Origin: Myxococcales bacterium | GTDB taxonomy: Bacteria > Desulfobacterota > Binatia > HRBIN30 | Length of the DNA: 64,000 bases | Direction of reading: 5' to 3' | NCBI GenBank assembly: GCA_037445065.1 | Contig: JBBILD010000010.1 | Coordinates: 1 to 64,000 of the forward strand | Notes under the pieces: generated by a model | Database searches by the model: none | Seen by the model: the letters and a program-made list of their open reading frames with translations, nothing else | Told to the model about the DNA's origin: nothing | Made by a program: the position numbers and the translations under genes | Part shown: piece after piece, positions 41,931-52,291 of the stretch | Layout of the letters: each line of letters starts with the position of its first letter | How positions within the stretch are numbered: position 1 is the first letter of the stretch

Positions 41931-42533
41931 TCAGTGCAGTTTCGCCAGCGCAATCGGTTGTGCGACAAAAGCGAGGCGAGCACCCGTTTCCGACAGCAGT
42001 GCCGTACCCTGGGGAAAGGTCGGCGGCGCGTGCGGGAAGACCAGCAGTGCCACGTCCAAGAAACCACCCCGCTCCGCCACAGCCGCTCTCGGTAGCTCCA
42101 ACGAGGCGAGGTACTGCCCGGCACCCAGCGCAATCGGCGTCTCGCGGCCCACGTACCAGAGTGCCGCGTCACCGCCGCTGCGCACCGCGAGCCGCACCTG
42201 GGCTGCGGAGACTGCTGGGTCAGCAAGCGTGAACCCCAACGAAAATGAGCAGTGTTCGCCCTCGATGAGGCCACAGTCCAAAACTCCGCGCCCCGCTTCC
42301 TGCAAATCTACCGGCGCCGCCATCGAGGGCACCGAAGCTAAGGGACACAGCGTCAGCCCGGTTTCCTCCACCACCACACAGCGCTGCTCCTGCCGCACCA
42401 ATTGCAACGCCGCAGCCTCCAGGGGGGCACGTGCATCGAAGCCGCTCGAGCCGCTGCCCCCCCCGCAAGCCGCGGCCCAAATGGCCGCTAGGATCAGACA
42501 GGTGACGTTGCGCCTGGCCATTGTCCACCTCAC
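41931..42533 (-). CDS. Hypothetical lipoprotein
   Basis: Lipobox AAAC-GGGSGSSG; four further Cys; GTGA overlap with the upstream regulator. Confidence 0.7.
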   Translation of the reverse strand: MRWTMARRNVTCLILAAIWAAACGGGSGSSGFDARAPLEAAALQLVRQEQRCVVVEETGLTLCPLASVPSMAAPVDLQEAGRGVLDCGLIEGEHCSFSLGFTLADPAVSAAQVRLAVRSGGDAALWYVGRETPIALGAGQYLASLELPRAAVAERGGFLDVALLVFPHAPPTFPQGTALLSETGARLAFVAQPIALAKLH

Positions 42534-43318
42534 AAAGCAGTGGCTGCCACCAAAACGTTCAGGAAACGGGTGTGCGGCCCCGCGTCAGCCGCGAACTCCT
42601 CCGCCAAGTTGCGCAGCGCCGCATCCAACCGGGTGGTAAACTCGTCCAACCGCTCCTCTTCGAGATTGAGAAAGTGGTTGCGCAGGTAGGTCTGCGCGGA
42701 CTGCTCGGCGAGCACCAGCTTTTCCAACAAAGCCTTGGTGAACAGCGCGCAAAACTCCATGGCCAACGCAGCTCTCTCCTCCGTTTCCTGCGGGACGTAG
42801 TGGCGACCCCGGCGCCGCACGCGACCTTTCTGGACTTCCACGAGTCCGCGCTCCCGCAGTAACTGCTCCACCGCATCTGCGCGGCCGACCGAGCTTTGCC
42901 GACGTTTCCCCGCAAATGTACGCCGCCAACGCGCCAAGGGGACCCAGCTCCCGTCATCCGGCAGAGCGGCAATCGCCTGGCTCACGCGCACGGCAAGCTC
43001 GGCATCGGGCAGACCTTGCACCTCCCGCGGACTGTGCAAGGCGCGCCGCAACTCCTTGCCCAATGCGTGCAGCATGCGGTCGCGCCACAAGAGCACCAGT
43101 AGTTCCCGCGCATCTTGCTTGCGCAAGGCCGCCAGCTTGCGCACCAGCGACTCACTCGGGAAACGCTTCCCTTTTTCGATGTAGCTCAGCATGACCGGAT
43201 CCACGGCGCCTTCCAGTACCTCTTCGGCAAAGCGGCGGACCGTGTACTGCCGCCCCATCAGCACACGCGTCTCGTAAAACACGTCCTTGATTTGCTTGAG
43301 CTGCGGCGTCGGCTGCAT
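42530..43318 (-). CDS. XRE-family HTH protein with uncharacterised C-terminal domain
   Basis: TVRRFAEE...MLSYIEKGKRFPSESLVRKLA is an XRE-type HTH. Confidence 0.7.
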   Translation of the reverse strand: MQPTPQLKQIKDVFYETRVLMGRQYTVRRFAEEVLEGAVDPVMLSYIEKGKRFPSESLVRKLAALRKQDARELLVLLWRDRMLHALGKELRRALHSPREVQGLPDAELAVRVSQAIAALPDDGSWVPLARWRRTFAGKRRQSSVGRADAVEQLLRERGLVEVQKGRVRRRGRHYVPQETEERAALAMEFCALFTKALLEKLVLAEQSAQTYLRNHFLNLEEERLDEFTTRLDAALRNLAEEFAADAGPHTRFLNVLVAATAL

Positions 43319-43409
43319 GCGGCGTGCCTAAAATACTGCAAGGCAGCCGACAAGCAAACAAGTCTTGTTCGTGCGCAGAACCGCTTTCGATGTGCTCGCC
43401 TACTGCTGC

Positions 43410-44336
43410 CTAAGCGGCAAGGGAGGGGGTTCCCACACCCTCCCGCTCCCAGCCCCGTCGCGCTTGCGGAAAGTAGCGGACGGTCGGGGGCAGATAGGGA
43501 AGCAGCGTGCGGGTGGCCCCCACGACTGCGCGGAACAAGCGTTCCTGCCAGGCGCTCCACGAATACCCGTAACGCACACGCACCGGTTCCGGCAAAAGGC
43601 CGATGGTCAGCAGGCGGAGCGGTGGCGCAGCAAAACGCAGGGGCCACGGATGCTCTGGCGCGAGGAGCGACTCGGCTATGTCGCGCGCCTGGCGGCCCAC
43701 GGCCAACTCATCGCCGTTCAACATCCGTTGCCAGTAGGCCGCAAAGCTGTGCCGGGAGGCAGGAATGAGCAGCTCCGGAACACCAAAGAGCCGCGCGACG
43801 ATCTTCGATTCCTCGTAGTACCGATCCTTTTCCGCCTCGCTTAAAGGGGCCACGAACATCTCGAACACGCGGATCGCGGTGTCCACTAAGGTCGCGTGCA
43901 CCCAGAACAACAGTTCCGGATCGGTGGCCCGATATGGGGTCCCTGCCGCAAAACGCCCCACGGGTTCAGGCAACGCTCCACGAACTCGCTCATGCCGTCG
44001 CTGGATCTGACCGAGCGCTTCCGCTGCCTCTCGGGCCGTGCCAAAGGCGATCGTGAGGGTGAGTTCCAGCGTGCGGTTGAGCCGCCCTAACGGATCCTCG
44101 CGGTAGCGGCTGTGCTCGGCCACTCCCGCCGCCACCAATGGGTGCGCCAGTTGCAGCAAAAGCGCACAGCCACCCCCTGCAAGAAGCACCGCCTCACGAT
44201 TGACCCTCCAGGTCACGGACTGGGGTCCGAGCACGCTCCGTTCCGGGCTGGCGGCGGCTAGCCCAAGCTGGGCACGCTTGCTGTGCTCGCGCGTTTTCCT
44301 CCTTGCCGGTCCGTGCTGACTGGCCCCTTTTGCCAT
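43410..44336 (-). CDS. MpaB/DUF2236 oxygenase-family protein
   Basis: ALLLQLAHPLVAAGV.EHS, HERVRG, YRATDPELLFWVHATL. Confidence 0.92.
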   Translation of the reverse strand: MAKGASQHGPARRKTREHSKRAQLGLAAASPERSVLGPQSVTWRVNREAVLLAGGGCALLLQLAHPLVAAGVAEHSRYREDPLGRLNRTLELTLTIAFGTAREAAEALGQIQRRHERVRGALPEPVGRFAAGTPYRATDPELLFWVHATLVDTAIRVFEMFVAPLSEAEKDRYYEESKIVARLFGVPELLIPASRHSFAAYWQRMLNGDELAVGRQARDIAESLLAPEHPWPLRFAAPPLRLLTIGLLPEPVRVRYGYSWSAWQERLFRAVVGATRTLLPYLPPTVRYFPQARRGWEREGVGTPSLAA

Positions 44337-44427: not shown

Positions 44428-45915
44428 TCAAAAGGTGAGCTGCATCTCGACGAAGCCGTAATTGCCGTCAGGGCTCGAGAACTGCTGGGCGAGCACCGCT
44501 TGCCCAAAGGCGTGGGCGTATAGCAGGTTCAGCGCGGCGTTCGGGTGGAGGCGAACCGTGCTGTACGCTTGCAGGAGGTGGGCAAGCTGCGTCTCGCCTT
44601 CAGTCGGTAGCCCGGCGTAGCCAAAGAAGGAGTCACTGGTGGCACCACCACCGCTGTAGAGAACGTCCTCCGCCTGGTCCACCTGCAACCAATGCCAATC
44701 GAAGCGCAGCACCCACCATGGTGTAGGAGCCAGCACGCTCTGCACGAACACGTCGCGGTTATTCATCATGTTGAAGAACGGGAACATCGCGTACTGCCAG
44801 GCGGTGGGCAGCATTTGAAAAAAAGTGCCGTGAGTACCGTCGTTCGGGTCGGAGTCTCCGGAACCAACGTTGATCCCCGCGCGCAGCCACGGCGAGGCCC
44901 AGGCTGCTTCCCACTTGTAGCCCGCTTCAATACCGTATGCGTACGCGCGCTGATCGAGTTCTTGCCAGTCCCCCACCTGGCCGTAGAAAAAGGCGCTCAG
45001 GTCGAGCTTGCCCTCCGGCAGAGCGAGAACATGTGCGGCATTTCCTCCCAGTGTATGGATCTCCAGCATCTGGCCTACGCTCTGCCGGCGTCGGTTCAGC
45101 GGGCGATTGTCCGTAACGACCAAGGCGCGTTCGTCCTGGTAGAGGCTCCAAAACACGCGCCCCACAGTGTTGGGAAGGGCCGCACTCGTATCCAGCAAGT
45201 TCGCGCTGACACCTGCCACCCGGATCTCGGGCAGGTTGCGCATGGCATCGGTTTCAAAGCCCCCGAAGGTCGGCAGAAAAGCAAAGGCCGAAAGCTCCCA
45301 TGTCGGCGCACGAAGCCCGAAGAGCGCACCATCGAAGCTGCGCCCGGTGTGCGTGTAATCAAAAGGACCAATCAACCGCTGCGACCAGCGCGTTTCTTGA
45401 ATCCACCGGAGGCTAGGATCGCGGGCCAGCCCCTGGCCTGCGTCACGGTACAGTTGCCGACCCAAGGCCACCGAGAAGCCCTCGTGCTGCAGGCGAAGCC
45501 AGCCCTGCCGCACAAAGACCGTGGCCTGCGTGCGGTCCGGAGTGTTTGCAACGTACACGGAGCCTACCCCGACTCCGTTTCGCGGCAACCCGGCGAGCAC
45601 CGTGTTCTGGCCCTGCAGGAACAACTCGACCACCTCGCTGCGCCAGCCGACACCGAGCTGCAACTTGTGGCCCACGAAGTCGTAACGCGATTCCCGCGGC
45701 TGCACAGATCCGCTGATCCGAGGGTCGCCGAACCAGTCGACAAACTCCCCGCGTAACCGCTCGCTGAGCGAGAGTCGCAACGTTCCGCCGCCGATGCCCC
45801 TCCACTCCAACGGCGGCACCTCTGGCGCACTGCTGAGCTGCCCCGTCGCCTGAGCCCGCGCGCTGAGGAAGCAAACGAGCCCCACACCCACCCATCCGAA
45901 GACGCGAAGCTTCAT
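44428..45915 (-). CDS. Outer-membrane beta-barrel, alginate export (AlgE-like) family
   Basis: Signal peptide; RLRGE, LGRQ, RSFDG, GSGD.DP.DG.HGTF.QM.PT; amphipathic strands and C-terminal Phe. Confidence 0.82.
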   Translation of the reverse strand: MKLRVFGWVGVGLVCFLSARAQATGQLSSAPEVPPLEWRGIGGGTLRLSLSERLRGEFVDWFGDPRISGSVQPRESRYDFVGHKLQLGVGWRSEVVELFLQGQNTVLAGLPRNGVGVGSVYVANTPDRTQATVFVRQGWLRLQHEGFSVALGRQLYRDAGQGLARDPSLRWIQETRWSQRLIGPFDYTHTGRSFDGALFGLRAPTWELSAFAFLPTFGGFETDAMRNLPEIRVAGVSANLLDTSAALPNTVGRVFWSLYQDERALVVTDNRPLNRRRQSVGQMLEIHTLGGNAAHVLALPEGKLDLSAFFYGQVGDWQELDQRAYAYGIEAGYKWEAAWASPWLRAGINVGSGDSDPNDGTHGTFFQMLPTAWQYAMFPFFNMMNNRDVFVQSVLAPTPWWVLRFDWHWLQVDQAEDVLYSGGGATSDSFFGYAGLPTEGETQLAHLLQAYSTVRLHPNAALNLLYAHAFGQAVLAQQFSSPDGNYGFVEMQLTF

Positions 45916-46015
45916 CGGTTTCCTCCTTTACCAGCAGACCGACCGCTACCACCGGCCGTTCGTCTCGCGCTCCCTTCTCCGTCGAGAGCTCTCCCCCAAA
46001 AGCTGGCGCGGCCGC

Positions 46016-46768
46016 TTACGCGCGCACGTCGCCGGCCCGCGGGCACTCGAATCGTTCGCCCTGCATGGGATCGCCGCCCGCACGTCCCCGGATCTCCTGC
46101 GCTTGCACGTGCAGGCGCTTCACCTCTTCCCGAACCGCAACACGAACGGCTGCCAGTAACTCCGGGTACGGCGCTGGCACGTTTTGGCGCGCCATTTCCG
46201 CTTCGAGAGCTCCCAGCCAGCGCGCCAAGTGATCTGCAAGGAACTGCCGAGCTGCGCTGCGCGTAATCGCCGCCTGTTCCCCCCAACGTTCCGCTCGCGC
46301 CCATGCTTCCTTGAACAAAAGCACGCTGTAAAACTCCAGTTCCACTGCCAAGTGATCGGCCCTCTCGTGCTGCAAGGACATGCCAAAAGCGCGGTAAAAG
46401 CCCTGCAGATCCGAGAGTTCCGCCGACTTGCCGGTGAGCCGCTGGCCGTCTCCGTATGCGGTTTCGTGCAGCGGGCAGCGCTGGTCGGTGGCAAAAAAAC
46501 GCGCGTAGCGCGCCGCCCGCTCCTCGCTAGAGCACCCGTGCCACGCAGCAGCCGCGCAGCCCAACGCGCGGCTGAGTTCCTCGCTCCACCCGGGCAAGTG
46601 GGACAACCGCCGCAACTCGCGCTCAAGTTGACCGTTGGCGTCCAGATAGGGGGAAGAAAACCCACGCGCGAGCGTACGAAACAGAGTGCACCGGCGGAGC
46701 ATTTCGAACACCCCTGTTTCCAGTTCGGTTGTGGAAGCAGGTGATTTCTTTGGCCCTGAAGCAGTCAT
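46016..46768 (-). CDS. TorD/DmsD-family molybdoenzyme maturation chaperone
   Basis: ETAY, FYRAFG, ERADHLAVELEF, FLADHLARW; position within the operon. Confidence 0.9.
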   Translation of the reverse strand: MTASGPKKSPASTTELETGVFEMLRRCTLFRTLARGFSSPYLDANGQLERELRRLSHLPGWSEELSRALGCAAAAWHGCSSEERAARYARFFATDQRCPLHETAYGDGQRLTGKSAELSDLQGFYRAFGMSLQHERADHLAVELEFYSVLLFKEAWARAERWGEQAAITRSAARQFLADHLARWLGALEAEMARQNVPAPYPELLAAVRVAVREEVKRLHVQAQEIRGRAGGDPMQGERFECPRAGDVRA

Positions 46769-46770
46769 GC

Positions 46771-47646
46771 TCACTCCTCGATTTGCACTGGCACCCACGG
46801 AGACCAAGCTTTGCGCGACCCGACCTCGCGGTTTCCCCCTTCCCACACCGCAAAGGCAGCCACGGTTTTTGCCCCGGGAGCAAGCTGCGGGTCGTTCTTG
46901 CTCGCAGTCTTGAGCGGGCGCGTGATGACCACCGACCAAGCGCCCTCCCGCCACACCCCGCGGCCATCGGCGTGCTCCTCCGCCTTGACCGTCATCGTCC
47001 CCCACCCTTCGGCCATTTGGTCCAACACCGGTGAGCGCCGCGGGTGGGAGATGGGATTGTCCACGCCCACCGCTCCCATGTACGGGCGTGCATCAATCGC
47101 GCTCAAGACCTGATCTGGGTACACATCCACCAGCGCGAACGGGTAGAGGTCGCGCACCTGTGGCTCGCCGTAATCCAAGTCGCGCTGAAAGGCGGCGCGC
47201 CACTGCATAATGGTCACACGAGCACCCGGGTTTCCCATCATCGGGCTGGGCAATGCGTCCTCTTGGAATTGATTCGGCAGCTCGACCGCGACCTGATCCC
47301 CAAACCGATCCAACACGATCACGTCACTCTGAGTAGAGTCGTCCCACTGCAGCCGGAAGGCCAGCCACTCACCGTTGTGCGCGGCTTGCACGCGGAGCTT
47401 TTGCACCGTGGCGTGCGGGTTGGTGGGGGCGGTAATGGTCTGCGGAAGCATCGTTACCTCGGTTGCCGGCACCTGCTCCCACCACGGTGCAAGAGGTTCT
47501 GCGAGGGAGCCCCGTTGCGCTACCCGCTTGCACTGGATGCCAGGAGCTTGGCCTGGCGATGGGGCACAGAGGGCGAGTATTCCCGCCGCCCATGCCGCCA
47601 CCACCCAGTGTCTTCCTCTCACCTTCCCTTCCCTCGAATCGGCCAT
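46771..47646 (-). CDS. Heme b gamma subunit (EbdC/NxrC-like, soluble periplasmic)
   Basis: Signal peptide; AAHNG..LAFRLQWDD, DQVAV, MMG (Met ligand), AFAVWEG...GSRK (Lys ligand). Confidence 0.88.
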   Translation of the reverse strand: MADSREGKVRGRHWVVAAWAAGILALCAPSPGQAPGIQCKRVAQRGSLAEPLAPWWEQVPATEVTMLPQTITAPTNPHATVQKLRVQAAHNGEWLAFRLQWDDSTQSDVIVLDRFGDQVAVELPNQFQEDALPSPMMGNPGARVTIMQWRAAFQRDLDYGEPQVRDLYPFALVDVYPDQVLSAIDARPYMGAVGVDNPISHPRRSPVLDQMAEGWGTMTVKAEEHADGRGVWREGAWSVVITRPLKTASKNDPQLAPGAKTVAAFAVWEGGNREVGSRKAWSPWVPVQIEE

Positions 47647-47661
47647 GTCGCGCACCTCGGT

Positions 47662-48789
47662 TCACGTAATGTTGCTGCGCCAGGTTCCGAACCGCTCGTC
47701 GTACGCCGGGCGCACGTACGTCGGTTCTGTGAACGGCACCCACACCACCTCTTCGTTTTGCTCGTTGTACCCGCTCACCCCTCCCTGCCGCACGCGGTAG
47801 TGGTGAACGATCAATGGCGTCGAGCCAAACAGCAGCAGCGCAGCCAAAAGCTTCTCGTCCTCGGCCGCTTGCCGGTAACGAGCAATCGCCTCTGGAACTC
47901 CCCAACCGAACATTTGCTGCAAATACGGGAGCGGAACGTGGACCGGCGGGATGTAATACACGTTGGGCTCGAGTCCGAACTGTGGGTAGAGCGGCTTGGC
48001 CACCTTAGTTATGTGGACCAAGTAATCGAGCGGATTGTCCTCGCGGATTTGGTCGGGGCGGCTGATGAACCCCTGGAGGCGGATTTTGCCGATGCAGGTA
48101 ATGGTGCACTGCGTTTGCCGGCCAGACTCGACCGCCGGATAGCAGCCGACGCACTTCTCGGAGACCCGCGTCATCGGGTTGAAAAAGGACTTCTTGTAAG
48201 GGCACCCGCGCACGCATTCGCGGTAGCCGCGGCAGCGATTCTGATCGATCAGAACGATCCCGTCTTCTGGCCTCTTGTAGACCGATTGCCGCGGGCATGC
48301 GCCTAAACAGCCGGGATAAGTGCAGTGGTTACAAATGCGCGGCAGATAAAACATCCACTGTGCATGGGGGATGGTGAGAAACGCCCCTTTTTCCATCAGG
48401 CCGAACGAATCGTCCTCGCCAATGTTCGGGTGCGCGTAGTCCAGATCGTCCGGTAAAAAACCCAGAATTCTCTCCCCCGTCGGCGCCGCCTCGAACAGCG
48501 TCTTACCGTCGTACACCGGGCCATCCATGGGCTGCACGCCTAACTTTTCGAGGATGCGCACATCCCAGCCCAACGGGTAGTAACCGTACGGCTTGGACTC
48601 GACGTTGTTCCAAAACATGTACTCCTGCCCGCGCCCCGGGGTCCAGGTCGTCTTGCACGCCACCGTGCACGTCTGGCAGGCAATGCATTTGTTCAAATCG
48701 AGCACCATCGCGAACTGCTTTTGCGGCCGCGCCCCCTCGTACGGGTAGTCCATCTCGCGGCCGATCTGCCAATTGTAGACTTTGGGCAT
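47662..48789 (-). CDS. Fe-S beta subunit of type II DMSO-reductase-family enzyme (NxrB/NarH-like)
   Basis: MPKVYNWQIGR N-terminus; four Cys groups CIACQTCTVAC, CNHCTYPGCLGAC, CRGYRECVRGC, CVGC...CTITC; WNNVESKP. Confidence 0.95.
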   Translation of the reverse strand: MPKVYNWQIGREMDYPYEGARPQKQFAMVLDLNKCIACQTCTVACKTTWTPGRGQEYMFWNNVESKPYGYYPLGWDVRILEKLGVQPMDGPVYDGKTLFEAAPTGERILGFLPDDLDYAHPNIGEDDSFGLMEKGAFLTIPHAQWMFYLPRICNHCTYPGCLGACPRQSVYKRPEDGIVLIDQNRCRGYRECVRGCPYKKSFFNPMTRVSEKCVGCYPAVESGRQTQCTITCIGKIRLQGFISRPDQIREDNPLDYLVHITKVAKPLYPQFGLEPNVYYIPPVHVPLPYLQQMFGWGVPEAIARYRQAAEDEKLLAALLLFGSTPLIVHHYRVRQGGVSGYNEQNEEVVWVPFTEPTYVRPAYDERFGTWRSNIT

Positions 48790-48802
48790 CGCTCCCCTCC
48801 TC

Positions 48803-51800
48803 TCACGCCTTCCGCACGAACTCGCCGCGTAGGTATTTTTTCACCGCCTCGTTCTCGTTGGTGGGGCGGAAGCCGAGACTCACCGGCCGCCAAGGGCCGC
48901 TGCCGTCCAGTCCACCGTCTTCCGCCTTCGTGAAGCGCGCCATCGCCTCGCGCGGCGCGCCGGTGACGCAGTGGACATCCACGTTAAACCCGCGCGTCAC
49001 CTCATGCGTCCACGACTTGCGGGTAATCAGGGAGTGGGTCTGGTGGGTGGGCTTTAGCCACGACCTCGTGAGGCTTTGATGCCCGCCGTAGCGGAACAAG
49101 GCCTGGTAGTGGGTCTCCGGATTCTTGGCCACTCCGTCCGGCCGCGTTTCATGAGCCTGCACGGTCCCGGGGGTGGCCATGTAGCCGTTGAACCACATGC
49201 GAGCGACGCCGCGCGGGGTTCCGGGATAGTAGCGCGCACGTGCCAGCAAGCGCGCGACTTTGTACTCTTCCTTGCGCTTCGGATCTTGCCACCCCCGGAA
49301 CGGCAAGTCCGCCGGGTCTCCATCAATCCAAACGTAGTCACCATCCTGGATGCCGAGCTCGCGTGCATCGAGTGGGTTGATGTCCACGTACATCTCCCCG
49401 GTGCCAGGCGAGCGCCGGTCACGCCGGTACATGTCCCCGAAGGGGCCGAACAGCGCCGCCATGTAATCGGTGTCAATCGGCATGGTGTGGGCGCCATGCC
49501 GGTACTTGGGCGTGTGGAAGATATACCGGTATCCCGCGGAAAGAAGCGGATGGCTGGTTTTCAACAGCTCTGCCGGCGGAAGCGGGACGTTGCGCATCTG
49601 CCGCGTCATGTGCGACCGATCTTCAGGCGGGATGCCCCAGTCCGCGGGCTGCTTTGGTCGCAGGGCCGGGTGGGGCGCCGCGGCAATGGCGCACGGCTCG
49701 TAGAATGTCGACTCGGCCGGTTCGCGGTGTACGGGTAGGTTCTCCCCGGCGTCCACGAACTCCGGCTCGGGCCGGTAAAACTCGAGGCGGCCGGTCTTCG
49801 TGTACCAGGGTTTCGACTCCTGCACTTGCTCGAAGCTGTTGATGCGCGGGTAGGAACGGGTGTTCATCAGAGCCGGCACTCCGGCTTTCGCTAGCTCTTC
49901 GAGATCCTCGAACTTGTATCCACGCAGCGGCGTGGAGCCGTCTATGATCCGCTGCAGGTAGACCTCCGCGCGGCCCTCGGCGATGAAGTGCCACATTTGC
50001 TCGAAACGCGCGTCGCCGGTGAGCTCGGCCAGTTCGCGCGCCACACCGAGGTAAGTCTCGTTATCGGAAACCGTCTCGAAGACCCGCTTGGCTGGGGTTC
50101 GCGGATAGGCCTGTATGAACGGGTTGGTGTTCGATGCGGTCATGTCGGGGAAGCGAAACTCCATCCAGGAGTCCACCCCGTACACGATGTCACTGTACTC
50201 GCACGAGCCTGTCCACCACCAGTCGTTGTACACCACCAGTTCCACCCGCGGCAGGGTGTTGAACACGACGTCGAAGTGCCCCTTTTGGTTTCCCAAGCTG
50301 GAATTGGAGTTTACCTGCCAAATCGCCTTGGTCGGCGTGGGGCAATGAGGCCCACTGGTGATCTTCTTGTTCCCTGCCTTTAAGATCCGCTCGCCGTTGG
50401 CCCAGTAGTGCATGGATTCCGAGCGCACGTAGGGCCGCGCTTTGACCTCTCCAGCCGGGTCGAGCTGCGGGTGGAACGGGTCTTCCAGCACGTACCGGGA
50501 GGCCACACCGCTAAACAGGGTGTTCTTGTAGGTGCCCGCGTAGCTGCCGATGTTGGCGCCGTGGCGCCCGAGGTTGGCGGTGAGGGCAAGAACCAAGAAC
50601 AGGGCGCGATCCTTGTTATCGTTGTTCCAAAACTGGTTCGGGCCCATACCGCAGGCGATCATCGTTTGCCCCCGATGGGCTGCAATGTCTCGCGCCAACG
50701 AAACGATCGCCTGCTCCGGAGCCCAAGTGAGCGCTGCCACTTGTTTCGGAGTCATGTTGGCGTCGAGGTAGTCGCGAATGAGGCTTAGCACCGGACGTAC
50801 TTCCACCTTCTTCCCGTCCACCAGTTCCACGGTGTACGTGCCTTCCAGCGCCGGCTCGATCCCCAAGTGGGCGAAGTGCTCCCCCAAGTCATCGTGGCTT
50901 ACAGCCACGGGTTTTCGCGTACGCAGATCCCACATCACGAAATCGGCGAACTCGCCCAGCAGGGCCTCTGGAATCTGCTTTCCCTCTTGCTGAATCGTCG
51001 GCGGGGCTTTTTGATCTTTGGCAACCACGCGCGTACTGTTTTGCGGCGGGCGGTCCTGGTGCCTTGGAAATACATCCGCCGCGCGCAGGCGCTCGAGCGT
51101 GTCCATGCGCACGAGGGTGGGCAAATCGGTGTAACGGCGCACGAAATCAGCGTCGTAGCGTTTTTCTGCGAGAATCACTTGCGCCAGTCCCAGCGCCAGT
51201 GCGGGGTCGCTTCCCGGGCGAATCACCACCACCTCGTCGCATTTGGACGCGGTAGCCGAGTATTCGACCGTGACGGCTACGACTTTGGTGCCCTTTAGCC
51301 GCGCTTCGGTCAGCCAGTGGCTATCCGGCATCTTGGTGGTGATCCAGTTCATGCCCCACACCAGCAAGAGCTTGGCGTGCTCGACGTCGAACAACTCGAA
51401 ATCGTTGGTTTGCTCGCCCGTGACCATCGGGTGCCCGGGCGGCAAGTCGGTGTGGAACGAGTAAGAGTCCCAGGTTCCGCCGCCCCGCGCTTGCTCGGGT
51501 GACACACCGCGCAGGTGGGCATCGAGAAGGGCCATGCTGTTGGCGAAACGGAAGGCGCCAAAGATGCGCACGGCACCTTGCTTCGCCATGCCGCCGCGGA
51601 ACTTGAGCACGGCCGTACCAGCGCCCCCCGTCTGTTCGACCATGTCCGGGTCGTGGCCCTGGGCAAGAAGGCGCCTCTTGCCCTCTTCTCCACTGTAGGT
51701 CTTGGCAATGTTGTAGAGCGCAGCCGCGTGGTAACGGTACGCTTCCGCGTGCGAGACCCGCACCCAGTGATCGAAGCCGCGCCGGAACAGTTCGCGCGGC

Positions 51801-52291
51801 GGGGCACCGGTCACCGGATCGCGCGGAAAGCCTCGGTCCACCCACTCTTTGAACCCTTTCCGCAAGAAGGCACCGTTAATACGCCTGTCCCCGTAAAAGC
51901 GGCGCGCCAGCACCAGCCCCTTCTGGCAACAGCGCGGATCCCAGCGGTGCGAAGCTTGGTGTCCGTACAGGTCACGCGCCTTTCCGTACCCGTAGGTGGG
52001 CTCGATTCGCACGACGACGTCGTTTTTGACGAAGGCGCGCAGCAGGCAGTTGTGGGTGTCGTTCGGGCAACACAGAAACACGAAGCTGCCGTCGGTCCGG
52101 AAAATGTCTCGATAAACCTTCTCCCACCCGCGTGTCGGGTAGCCAGCAAGCGGGTTCGGCACGACCACCGGATCGAGAAACCCCCCTGCGCCAGCAGCTT
52201 GGCTCGGGTCGGCCGCCACCCCCAAACCCGCCGCCGCCGCGAGTTCGAGAAACCGGCGGCGAGAAATTCCACCCATTTTCTCGTCCCGCAT
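48803..52291 (-). CDS. Molybdo-bis-PGD alpha subunit, Tat-exported, periplasmic NXR/NAR-like
   Basis: GGAGGAGG RBS; twin-Arg SRRRFLE; NPL..YP.R.WE.VY; FS0 motif CCPNDTHNC...CCQKG; Mo-ligand region [22 protein letters not shown]. Confidence 0.93.

Follow-up and report, generated by a model that had tools for sequence, protein, structure and literature searches.

A stretch of 64,000 nucleotides (the window) from a bacterium that is likely of the class Binatia, judging by its sequence, carries genes for a periplasmic molybdoenzyme, and the question is what this enzyme does: does it oxidise nitrite, or reduce nitrate or another oxyanion? The RpoB of the host is 81% identical to that of the 'Bacterium HR30' genome, as against 62–67% to those of three unrelated genomes, and HRBin30 is an order of the Binatota (PMC8262859), in agreement with the Binatia-like host proposed in an earlier note on this DNA.

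Gene set and subunits

Five intact open reading frames, all on the minus strand, together span exactly positions 44428–52291. They encode the catalytic Mo-bisPGD subunit alpha (48803–52291, 1162 aa), of the Nitrotoga/Hydrogenobacter-type periplasmic NxrA/NarG lineage; beta (47662–48789, 375 aa), with four Fe-S cluster motifs, three for 4Fe-4S and one, with Tyr at a Cys position, likely for 3Fe-4S; gamma (46771–47646, 291 aa), with an EB_dh haem-b domain (PF09459); a TorD/NarJ-type chaperone, delta (46016–46768, 250 aa; PF02613); and a predicted outer-membrane porin of the alginate-export family (44428–45915, 495 aa; PF13372). The description of these as five tightly spaced co-oriented genes holds for alpha, beta, gamma and the chaperone, separated by 13, 15 and 2 bp, whereas the porin follows after 100 bp. 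Since this gap is similar to the 91 bp between the porin and the next co-oriented gene (44336), the end of the operon is not fixed by spacing alone. A purine-rich, Shine-Dalgarno-like stretch precedes each of the five starts, and a promoter and terminator scan gave nothing over chance. No foreign island was seen by composition (GC 0.62–0.65 across the region; GC3 0.70–0.79 against 0.74 ± 0.03 for 1591 filtered ORFs). Alpha is present in a single copy in the host genome. Lipid-catabolism-type genes flank the operon.

The motifs named in the earlier note are all present. The twin-arginine motif SRRRFL (alpha residues 10–15; 52247–52264, minus strand) coincides in position with that of 7B04 chain B and predicts Tat export, signal peptides being called from motif and hydropathy. 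The FS0 motif C74-x2-N77-D78-x3-C82 (52046–52072, minus strand) corresponds to C67/N70/D71/C75 of Kuenenia, the fourth FS0 ligand C122 (51926–51928, minus strand) to C115, and Asp282 (51446–51448, minus strand) to the Mo ligand Asp275 of Kuenenia NxrA; the Mo motif reads HTDLPPGH. Asn77 is the equivalent of the proposed substrate-binding Asn of Kuenenia NXR. Beta is leaderless and starts with MPKVYNWQIGR, and Met137/Lys279 of gamma align with Met155/Lys305 of Kuenenia, a haem ligation as in EbdC.

Across the five proteins, hydropathy in 19-residue windows nowhere exceeded 1.51; the highest-scoring windows of gamma, hydrophobic only at its N-terminus, and of the porin are N-terminal leaders. 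Thus, as claimed earlier, the operon encodes no membrane quinol-interacting subunit, unlike the periplasmic NAR of Hydrogenobacter thermophilus, which is described as membrane-bound. The HxxxCxxxC FS0 motif and the NarI membrane subunit, traits of cytoplasmic NarGHI and Nitrobacter-type NXR, are also absent from the operon.

Placement in the Nitrotoga-type lineage

By its sequence, alpha is a member of the Nitrotoga/Hydrogenobacter-type lineage of periplasmic NXR/NAR enzymes, which is already known, and not of the Ebd, Ser, Clr or NarG groups, so that the periplasmic NXR/NAR assignment of the earlier note was borne out and made more specific. The best PDB matches of alpha, beta and gamma are the three subunits of Kuenenia stuttgartiensis NXR-ABC (7B04), with E values of 1e-275, 4e-116 and 3e-18, far beyond chance. 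For alpha, NXR scored 921 bits compared with 191 for 4ydd and 143 for EbdA, and its scores stayed below the curated thresholds for narG, ebdA and TIGR03479. In the careful IQ-TREE tree (33 of the 69 rows; LG+G4 with no mixture model; long outgroup branches flagged), alpha fell in a clade with Nitrotoga, whose reference sequence was confirmed by name, and Natronococcus, sister to NxrA of Nitrospira, Nitrospina and anammox bacteria (support 100/100). The same clade membership was obtained with FastTree on all 69 rows. The alpha trees leave out Hydrogenobacter, Beggiatoa, Thermogutta, SerA, ClrA, EbdA and PcrA sequences, and the chlorite-dismutase-linked enzyme of L105 served as a stand-in for the Ebd/Ser/Clr/Pcr enzymes. 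Grouping with Ebd, Ser, Clr or NarG, named beforehand as the outcome that would speak against the assignment, was seen neither in these trees nor in the PDB ranking: alpha is 27–28% identical to the L105 enzyme and NarG (27% to NarG of E. coli) and falls outside their groups. With E. coli NarGHJI and Ebd/Ser/Clr/Pcr it shares type II membership in the DMSO reductase family, an Asp-ligated Mo and a four-cluster beta subunit.

Within the lineage, alpha nests with copies from Thiomargarita, Ca. Magnetaquicoccus, Thioalkalivibrio and Hyphomicrobium (support 100/99–100), and beta does likewise (100/97). Alpha is 71–77% identical to the Thiomargarita, Magnetococcales and Hyphomicrobium copies, and 68–77% over the 'NarGHI-like' operons of Ca. 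Magnetaquicoccus inordinatus (PMC6783814), Thiomargarita, Thioalkalivibrio thiocyanoxidans and Hyphomicrobiaceae, which have near-identical active-site motifs and the same ABCD operon. The Ca. Magnetaquicoccus authors assigned no substrate to theirs (PMC6783814), and we found no nitrate or nitrite phenotype and no assayed member in the literature for this sub-branch.

Two closer identifications were rejected. With Ca. Nitrotoga NxrABCD the operon shares gene order, a Tat alpha, a leaderless beta, a soluble gamma and a TorD chaperone, as well as the 3Cys/1Asp FS0, an HTDL-type Mo motif, Thr at Kuenenia position 312 and Lys at 917. However, identity is 46% for alpha, 56–57% for beta and 38% for gamma, the Nitrotoga pattern Y-4x-D-11x-QM ends in QT, Met549 stands where Nitrotoga has Ala (Kuenenia position 527), and a grouping of alpha with Nitrotoga was rejected (p-AU 8e-45); it is not a Nitrotoga NXR in the narrow sense. 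Similarly, the NXRs of Kuenenia, Nitrospira, Nitrospina and anammox bacteria share C67/N70/D71/C75/C115/D275/K917, but alpha is only 40–42% identical to them, has Thr319 for Asn312, Met549 for Glu527 and HTDLPPGH for their HGDQ-type Mo motif, and monophyly with them was rejected (p-AU 3e-29). The protein P0126, whose length had suggested a possible Nitrotoga sequence, comes from a Gaiellaceae cluster.

A reviewer in the peer-review file of PMC8387239 listed four marks of this lineage ('lineage g' there; the Nitrotoga-type clade of PMC6050957) in Kuenenia numbering: conserved Asp71 and Lys917, a Thr at 312 and a residue other than Glu at 527. Alpha fits all four, with D78, K929, T319 and M549. 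Nitrate reductases of the lineage have the FS0 Asp as well (PMC8387239, both in the article and in its peer-review file); this residue marks the lineage and not the reaction direction, which no known sequence feature fixes and which cannot be read from sequence. The sole biochemically characterised member, the Hydrogenobacter enzyme, is a nitrate reductase according to the part of PMC6050957 that cites it.

That the operon would be a rarity is not supported. The lineage is widespread and already known, with 581 sequences in one published survey, and this locus is one more member of a barely assayed group. Among 41 related genomes, 17 have the lineage enzyme and three a canonical NarG, none of these three together with it, which is weak at n = 3. 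A plasmid search gave five records, one of them near full length (Natronococcus).

Host respiration, porin and upstream regions

The host genome (97.7% complete) contains an alternative complex III (ACIII)-type cluster with an aa3-type oxidase, soluble cytochromes c and four haem-copper oxygen reductases, and no bc-complex cytochrome b was found in it. In three relatives cytochrome b and c genes adjoin alpha, in two of them together with Crp/Fnr and haemerythrin genes. The electron partner, said earlier to be unknown, is thus less so. NarG and NapA were not found, which leaves this enzyme as the sole candidate found for respiratory nitrate reduction. Searches for NirK, full-length NirS, NrfA, any dissimilatory nitrite or NO reductase and NiFe hydrogenase gave nothing in the host genome; a weak PF02335 match is the ACIII pentahaem cytochrome. 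A motif scan had missed NosZ, whereas a clade II NosZ, accompanied by NosD, scored above the cut-off in an HMM search; motif-only negatives are thus weak, and HMM results take precedence wherever they exist. With a NosZ but neither a nitrite nor an NO reductase among the genes found, the host would denitrify only in part, taking nitrate to nitrite and N2O to N2.

The search for CO2 fixation proposed in the note found no key enzyme among those sought: RuBisCO occurred in 0 of 41 genomes, CdhC (ACS) was not found in the host, and the ATP-citrate lyase model, which matched 0 of 14 controls and so has no positive control, gave only a SucC-like protein (a weak PF16114 match). The SucCD-like pair might conceivably act as a citryl-CoA synthetase. 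The reductive-glycine genes FTHFS and folD-gcvTHP and three 2-oxoacid:ferredoxin oxidoreductase (POR-family) matches are present, so formate-based carbon assimilation may occur; no formate dehydrogenase was found.

The porin scores 55.9 bits against PF13372 (cut-off 25.2), with ESM features at 0.99, and is by this score predicted to be an AlgE-type protein of the outer membrane. Its gene is no more than 7 kb away from that of alpha in 13 of 17 genomes, and homologues at 7 of 17 other loci neighbour genes for NarK, ABC-type anion transport, NirB/NasA, NirS or a type II molybdoenzyme. Only 3 of 80 named loci of alpha relatives have a homologue, many of these loci being truncated. The recurrent linkage appears to be a small addition to what is known of this operon type, and it singles out the porin as a candidate channel for nitrate/nitrite across the outer membrane.

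An FNR-type box (0–1 mismatch) was found upstream in 23 of 32 named loci at 70–78% identity, and 29 of 91 upstream regions carried one compared with 2 of 265 in-gene control windows. Most of the Magnetococcales, Thiomargarita, Thioalkalivibrio and Hyphomicrobiaceae operons have this box and no porin homologue at the locus, unlike the operon here. Among 19 loci of the host's order, this one included, none had a box; the window holds two one-mismatch matches (3.3 expected), none upstream of alpha, where a variant palindrome of some relatives is also absent. Both Nitrotoga-type loci carry a perfect box, so it does not discriminate direction. Neighbour genes in 83 loci include Crp/Fnr (16), MoaA-type (16) and protoglobin kinases (7).

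Direction of the reaction

It seems likely that the enzyme is a cytochrome-c-fed periplasmic nitrate reductase, used when oxygen is short in a partial denitrifier. Alpha would fold with the chaperone, and the soluble alpha–beta–gamma complex is predicted to be exported to the periplasm, where nitrate would enter via the co-encoded porin. Electrons from organics would pass from quinol through ACIII to a soluble cytochrome c, then to the gamma haem b (Met/Lys), the four beta clusters, FS0 and Mo, with complex I and ACIII rather than the molybdoenzyme as the sites of energy conservation. In vitro the reaction can probably run both ways, like that of other NXRs. In favour of nitrate reduction count the ligands shared with Kuenenia NXR, the alpha and beta trees, the Hydrogenobacter enzyme, the FNR-type boxes and the neighbour genes at the loci of relatives, the respiratory gene complement of the host, the weak mutual exclusion with NarG, the cytochrome genes next to alpha in three relatives and the neighbours of the porin homologues. 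Against it count the lack of an FNR-type box in the host's order and its presence in the Nitrotoga-type loci, the reverse electron flow that ACIII serves in Nitrotoga, the genes that would allow formate-based carbon assimilation and the four oxygen reductases of the host.

These oxidases favour a mainly nitrite-oxidising enzyme, in which electrons would run from the gamma haem b via cytochrome c to one of them and yield extra energy, carbon would come from organics or formate, and nitrate might be reduced in anoxia. Nitrotoga oxidises nitrite within the same lineage, with the same ABCD order, a soluble gamma and ACIII without bc1; FTHFS and folD-gcvTHP are present; and the 65–70 °C reactors behind the HR-series genomes made nitrate with no identified nitrite oxidiser, according to passages of PMC5877337 that do not name HR30, whose link to them rests on the name of its genome record. 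On the other hand, alpha is not the sister of Nitrotoga NxrA, Met549 matches neither group of nitrite oxidisers, Nitrotoga has two to three copies and RuBisCO, NirK is present in all Nitrotoga and most nitrite oxidisers, and no CBB, ACL, ACS or formate dehydrogenase was found. The weight that the earlier note put on nitrite oxidation is therefore not retained, alpha being far from both groups and the FS0 Asp common to nitrate reductases. We regard this reading as unlikely but not negligible, because direction is unreadable from sequence and the reductive-glycine genes are present. Slightly less probable is its bolder form, a hidden mixotrophic Binatia nitrite oxidiser without classical CO2 fixation, with an enzyme from a never-assayed branch and its own nitrite/nitrate porin.

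Type II DMSO-reductase-family enzymes switch substrate readily, Ebd/Ser/Clr-type enzymes share the soluble Met/Lys gamma, and the sub-branch lacks an assayed member in the literature found, so chlorate, perchlorate, selenate or arsenate could be considered as the main substrate. This is improbable given the distance from the L105 enzyme and NarG, the conserved Asn77 and porin homologues that track nitrate/nitrite genes; the chlorite-dismutase-family protein of the host scores best as the haem synthase HemQ/ChdC. Periplasmic nitrate reduction in itself moves no charge, and the enzyme might act, like some NapAB, only as a redox valve for surplus electrons of fatty-acid oxidation, even in air and without anaerobic growth. 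The lipid-catabolism-type neighbours and the lack of an FNR-type box upstream fit such a role, but energy would be conserved at the ACIII upstream, the clade II NosZ speaks for anaerobic respiration of N-oxides and the nearest homologues have FNR boxes; this is the least probable of the readings.

Surveys score genes of this lineage under 'nxrA' or 'narG'. A single copy, no other respiratory nitrate reductase found, no complex III found besides ACIII, and a NosZ unaccompanied by Nir/Nor make the host genome a clean test case. If the enzyme did oxidise nitrite for energy, nitrite oxidisers would widen to non-autotrophs, and the many 70%-identical operons that sulfur oxidisers and magnetotactic cocci carry would become nitrite-oxidiser candidates too.

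The five-gene locus and the lineage of its enzyme

Five minus-strand ORFs occupy exactly 44428–52291, and the five-gene set of the earlier note is real and was correctly described. They encode alpha (48803–52291, 1162 aa, Pfam Molybdopterin), beta (47662–48789, 375 aa, Fer4_11), gamma (46771–47646, 291 aa, EB_dh), a chaperone (46016–46768, 250 aa, Nitrate_red_del) and a porin (44428–45915, 495 aa, Alginate_exp). The intergenic gaps from alpha to porin are 13, 15, 2 and 100 bp, and an SD-like stretch lies ahead of each start. No hydrophobic, membrane-anchor-like stretch beyond a leader was found in any of the five proteins. The best NCBIfam models for the first four were those of type II DMSO reductases, all under the curated cut-offs, and the Kuenenia nitrite oxidoreductase (NXR; PDB 7B04) was the top solved-structure match for alpha, beta and gamma. 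In the alignment, alpha residues C74, N77, D78, C82, C122, D282 and K929 correspond to C67, N70, D71, C75, C115, D275 and K917 of Kuenenia NxrA, whose roles were taken from PMC8387239; Met137 and Lys279 are retained in gamma. The host genome, 97.7% complete, holds one copy of alpha.

The assignment to the periplasmic NXR or Nitrotoga-type NXR/nitrate reductase (NAR) family was borne out by the trees of alpha and beta. Under a simple LG+G4 model, with long outgroup branches flagged and rows that exclude Hydrogenobacter, Beggiatoa, SerA, ClrA, EbdA and PcrA, alpha was placed inside the Nitrotoga/Natronococcus clade (100/100; 69-row FastTree and 33-row IQ-TREE), and a 36-row beta tree agreed (100/97). 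The Nitrotoga references were Nitrotoga-type operons, and one of their alphas has exactly the sequence of a protein named Ca. Nitrotoga sp.; the others were NxrA of Nitrospira, Nitrospinota and anammox bacteria, Natronococcus, E. coli NarG and two plasmid enzymes. Within the clade, alpha belongs to a sub-branch (100/100) with Thiomargarita, Ca. Magnetaquicoccus, Hyphomicrobium, a gammaproteobacterial genome and other deltaproteobacterial or Binatia copies, and the sister of this sub-branch is Thioalkalivibrio thiocyanoxidans (100/99), represented by the cultured strain ARh2. Alpha is 71–77% identical to members of its own sub-branch and 68% to T. thiocyanoxidans, whereas identity falls to 46% with Nitrotoga, 40–42% with Nitrospira/anammox and 27% with NarG. 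Grouping alpha with Nitrotoga itself, or with the Nitrospira/anammox clade, was rejected by the AU test.

As a reviewer set out in the peer-review file of PMC8387239, the NXRs of Nitrospira, anammox bacteria and Nitrospina carry Asn312 and Glu527, Nitrotoga forms one lineage with the Hydrogenobaculum and Beggiatoa nitrate reductases, marked by Thr312, and Asp71 and Lys917 are common to both NXR lineages and to these nitrate reductases. At the positions of Kuenenia 312 and 527, our alpha has Thr319 and Met549.

The operon is a member of a known and widespread kind of enzyme. An E-value of 1e-50 or lower was obtained for 2856 of 8000 scored candidates, the best 120 being 71–89% identical to alpha. 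Related loci were found in at least 600 stretches; the 80 that were retained come from many phyla, with A-B-C-D in order in almost every one of sufficient length. In the host's family and order, a homologue of alpha is present in 23 of 41 genomes, and in 17 of these its identity is at least 56%. Elsewhere, 581 Nitrotoga-clade sequences were counted in 97,227 genomes (PMC12823411), and the clade had been described as made up of proteins that are for the most part uncharacterised and whose direction is uncertain (PMC6050957). The Magnetaquicoccus operon is noted in PMC6783814, with no substrate assigned, and bioRxiv 2022.03.11.484050 reports, after a nar/nxr phylogeny, Binatia 'NarG' peptides from river sediment, which may be of this or another type. 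In a literature search that took in few subscription papers, neither the occurrence of the enzyme in this Binatia lineage nor its link to the porin was the subject of any paper.

Four loci of the order (L017–L020, in G013, G026, G025 and G027) have an alpha that falls in the clade on the Nitrospira/anammox side and is 41–43% identical to ours. Second copies of this type are present in G015, G023 and G031, and some genomes also hold a Nitrotoga-type copy. For nitrite oxidation, these alphas are stronger candidates than the operon studied here. In G020 (C1:35861-39431) alpha is broken into four frames and the porin has an internal stop, either a pseudogene or an assembly error.

The porin and its neighbours

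Porin homologues were detected in 34 of the 41 genomes. Of the 17 genomes with this alpha type, 13, host included, have the porin on the contig of alpha and no more than 7 kb away, a count to be read as no statistical test, the genomes being kin; in the remaining four it is on a different contig. The alphas of the 17 genomes fall in several separate sub-branches (69-row FastTree) and the porin is upstream of alpha in some genomes but downstream of it elsewhere, so that the pairing was either retained or formed anew. Only three of the 80 named loci, many of which are incomplete, contain the porin.

The neighbourhoods of 20 porin loci were also fetched, and the 129 of 250 called ORFs nearest to the porin were scanned. 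In 7 of the 17 loci without a known adjacent alpha of this type, the porin adjoins genes linked to nitrate or nitrite (NarK-like or ABC anion transporters, NirB/NasA, NirS/NnrS, type II molybdoenzyme genes); in the other 10, no such neighbours were seen among the scanned ORFs. From its linkage to alpha and to these genes, the porin is likely a nitrate/nitrite channel, a putative role read from gene neighbourhood.

In the other three loci (L137, L138, L139), genes for cytochrome b and multi-haem cytochrome c flank the enzyme, in two of them together with an Fe-S flavoprotein gene; this bc-like donor module is absent from the host genome. Past the porin in the window (41931–44336, minus strand) are co-oriented genes for an MpaB/Lcp-type oxygenase-domain protein (PF09995), a 262-aa protein and a 200-aa lipoprotein-like protein, the latter two without a Pfam match; these genes may be part of the operon's transcript.

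Respiratory and carbon genes of the host

The host is Binatia-like, as had been suggested: its RpoB shares 81% identity with its counterpart in the 'Bacterium HR30' genome versus 62–67% for one genome each of Polyangiaceae, Rokubacteria and Acidobacteriota, with no match in the fifth of the five genomes tested. The alpha of a same-family genome pairs with the HR30 copy (100/100, 33-row IQ-TREE). The order HRBin30 belongs to Binatota, whose members all encode alternative complex III (ACIII) and complex IV (PMC8262859). The earlier note had called the electron partner unknown; the operon indeed encodes no membrane subunit, but the genome contains, at C16:1727-14076, an aa3-type oxidase linked to an ActA/B/C-type cluster, in which NCBIfam named only a QrcC-like domain, the Act names being interpretive. 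It also contains a candidate cytochrome c (C28:12735-13238), which over 63 aa has 57% identity with a cytochrome c encoded beside the operon in five loci.

Four haem-copper oxidases are present, and apart from these no match of NO reductase length was found in the host genome; neither were the cytochrome b of a bc complex, NirK, NirS, NrfA, NarG, NapA, NiFe hydrogenase or formate dehydrogenase. Clade II NosZ and NosD are encoded, as is an assimilatory NirB/NasC/NarK-like cluster. The nos cluster (L141, C19:37160-43456) comprises clade II nosZ, an upstream cytochrome c gene, nosD and a nosY-like gene, possibly an N2O sink without N2O production.

In the search for CO2 fixation, RuBisCO was found in none of the 41 genomes, and CdhC and ACL were not found in the host genome. 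FTHFS, a folD-gcvT-gcvH-gcvP cluster and three POR-family matches are present and weaken the reading as a strict heterotroph. At motif level, folD is immediately upstream of gcvT-gcvH-gcvP (C5:213698-219080), and the formate-tetrahydrofolate ligase lies apart (C4:163010-164713); together they point to C1/glycine metabolism, in one direction or the other.

Two further clusters were observed. Multihaem cytochrome genes (6, 18, 4, 7 and 10 CxxCH motifs) surround a possible beta-barrel protein at C7:145759-154427, an arrangement resembling an extracellular electron-transfer conduit. A second Tat-type molybdoenzyme operon (L140, C38:2271-6914) encodes an Fe-S subunit, an NrfD-like membrane subunit and a catalytic subunit; its best score, under cut-offs, was PhsA/ArrA-like, and it is of the polysulfide/thiosulfate/arsenic-oxyanion type.

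Regulation and the direction of catalysis

Using a consensus with 0–1 mismatch, we found an FNR-type box upstream of alpha in 29 of the 91 loci whose preceding DNA was long enough, versus 2 of 265 in-gene windows; among the 32 named loci at 70–78% identity, 23 have it. Crp/Fnr genes (16), MoaA-type genes (16) and protoglobin kinases (7) recur near alpha among 83 loci, which together with the boxes suggests that the nearest homologues are controlled by low oxygen. Both Nitrotoga-type nxrABCD loci (L022, L023) have a perfect FNR-type palindrome 278–291 bp upstream of the twin-arginine motif of alpha, which suggests that nxr responds to oxygen or NO in a lineage proven to oxidise nitrite, and the box is missing from all 19 loci examined from the host's order and from this window; it thus does not settle the direction. 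A variant palindrome, ATGAC-N4-(G/A)TCAT, precedes alpha in five Binatia-order, deltaproteobacterial and Methylomirabilota loci (L002, L028, L048, L059, L062), possibly as a lineage-specific Crp/Fnr site, and is absent upstream of alpha in this window. A 290-aa protein without a Pfam match (L090:2131-3003 and homologues) is encoded upstream of alpha in 22 of 83 loci; no homologue was found in the host genome.

The enzyme is probably a periplasmic nitrate reductase fed by cytochrome c, with ACIII upstream and entry through the porin, in a partial denitrifier. Its main rival is nitrite oxidation for energy, which we regard as unlikely, although Nitrotoga shares the gene layout and ACIII (bioRxiv 317552), direction cannot be told from sequence, and reactors that yielded HR-series genomes formed nitrate at 70 °C with no nitrite oxidiser identified (PMC5877337). 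That the host is a non-autotrophic nitrite oxidiser is likewise rather improbable. Less likely than nitrite oxidation are another oxyanion as the substrate, to which we give little credence, and a pure redox valve, to which we give less still.

If the enzyme reduces nitrate, alpha would be matured by the chaperone and would carry beta through Tat, while gamma would be exported by Sec. Nitrate would enter via the porin, and electrons would pass from ACIII to a cytochrome c, for which the C28 protein is one candidate shuttle, and on to the soluble complex. Because NosZ is present and Nir and Nor are absent, the organism would produce nitrite and consume N2O. What is added to the known biology of this enzyme is small, namely its link to the porin.
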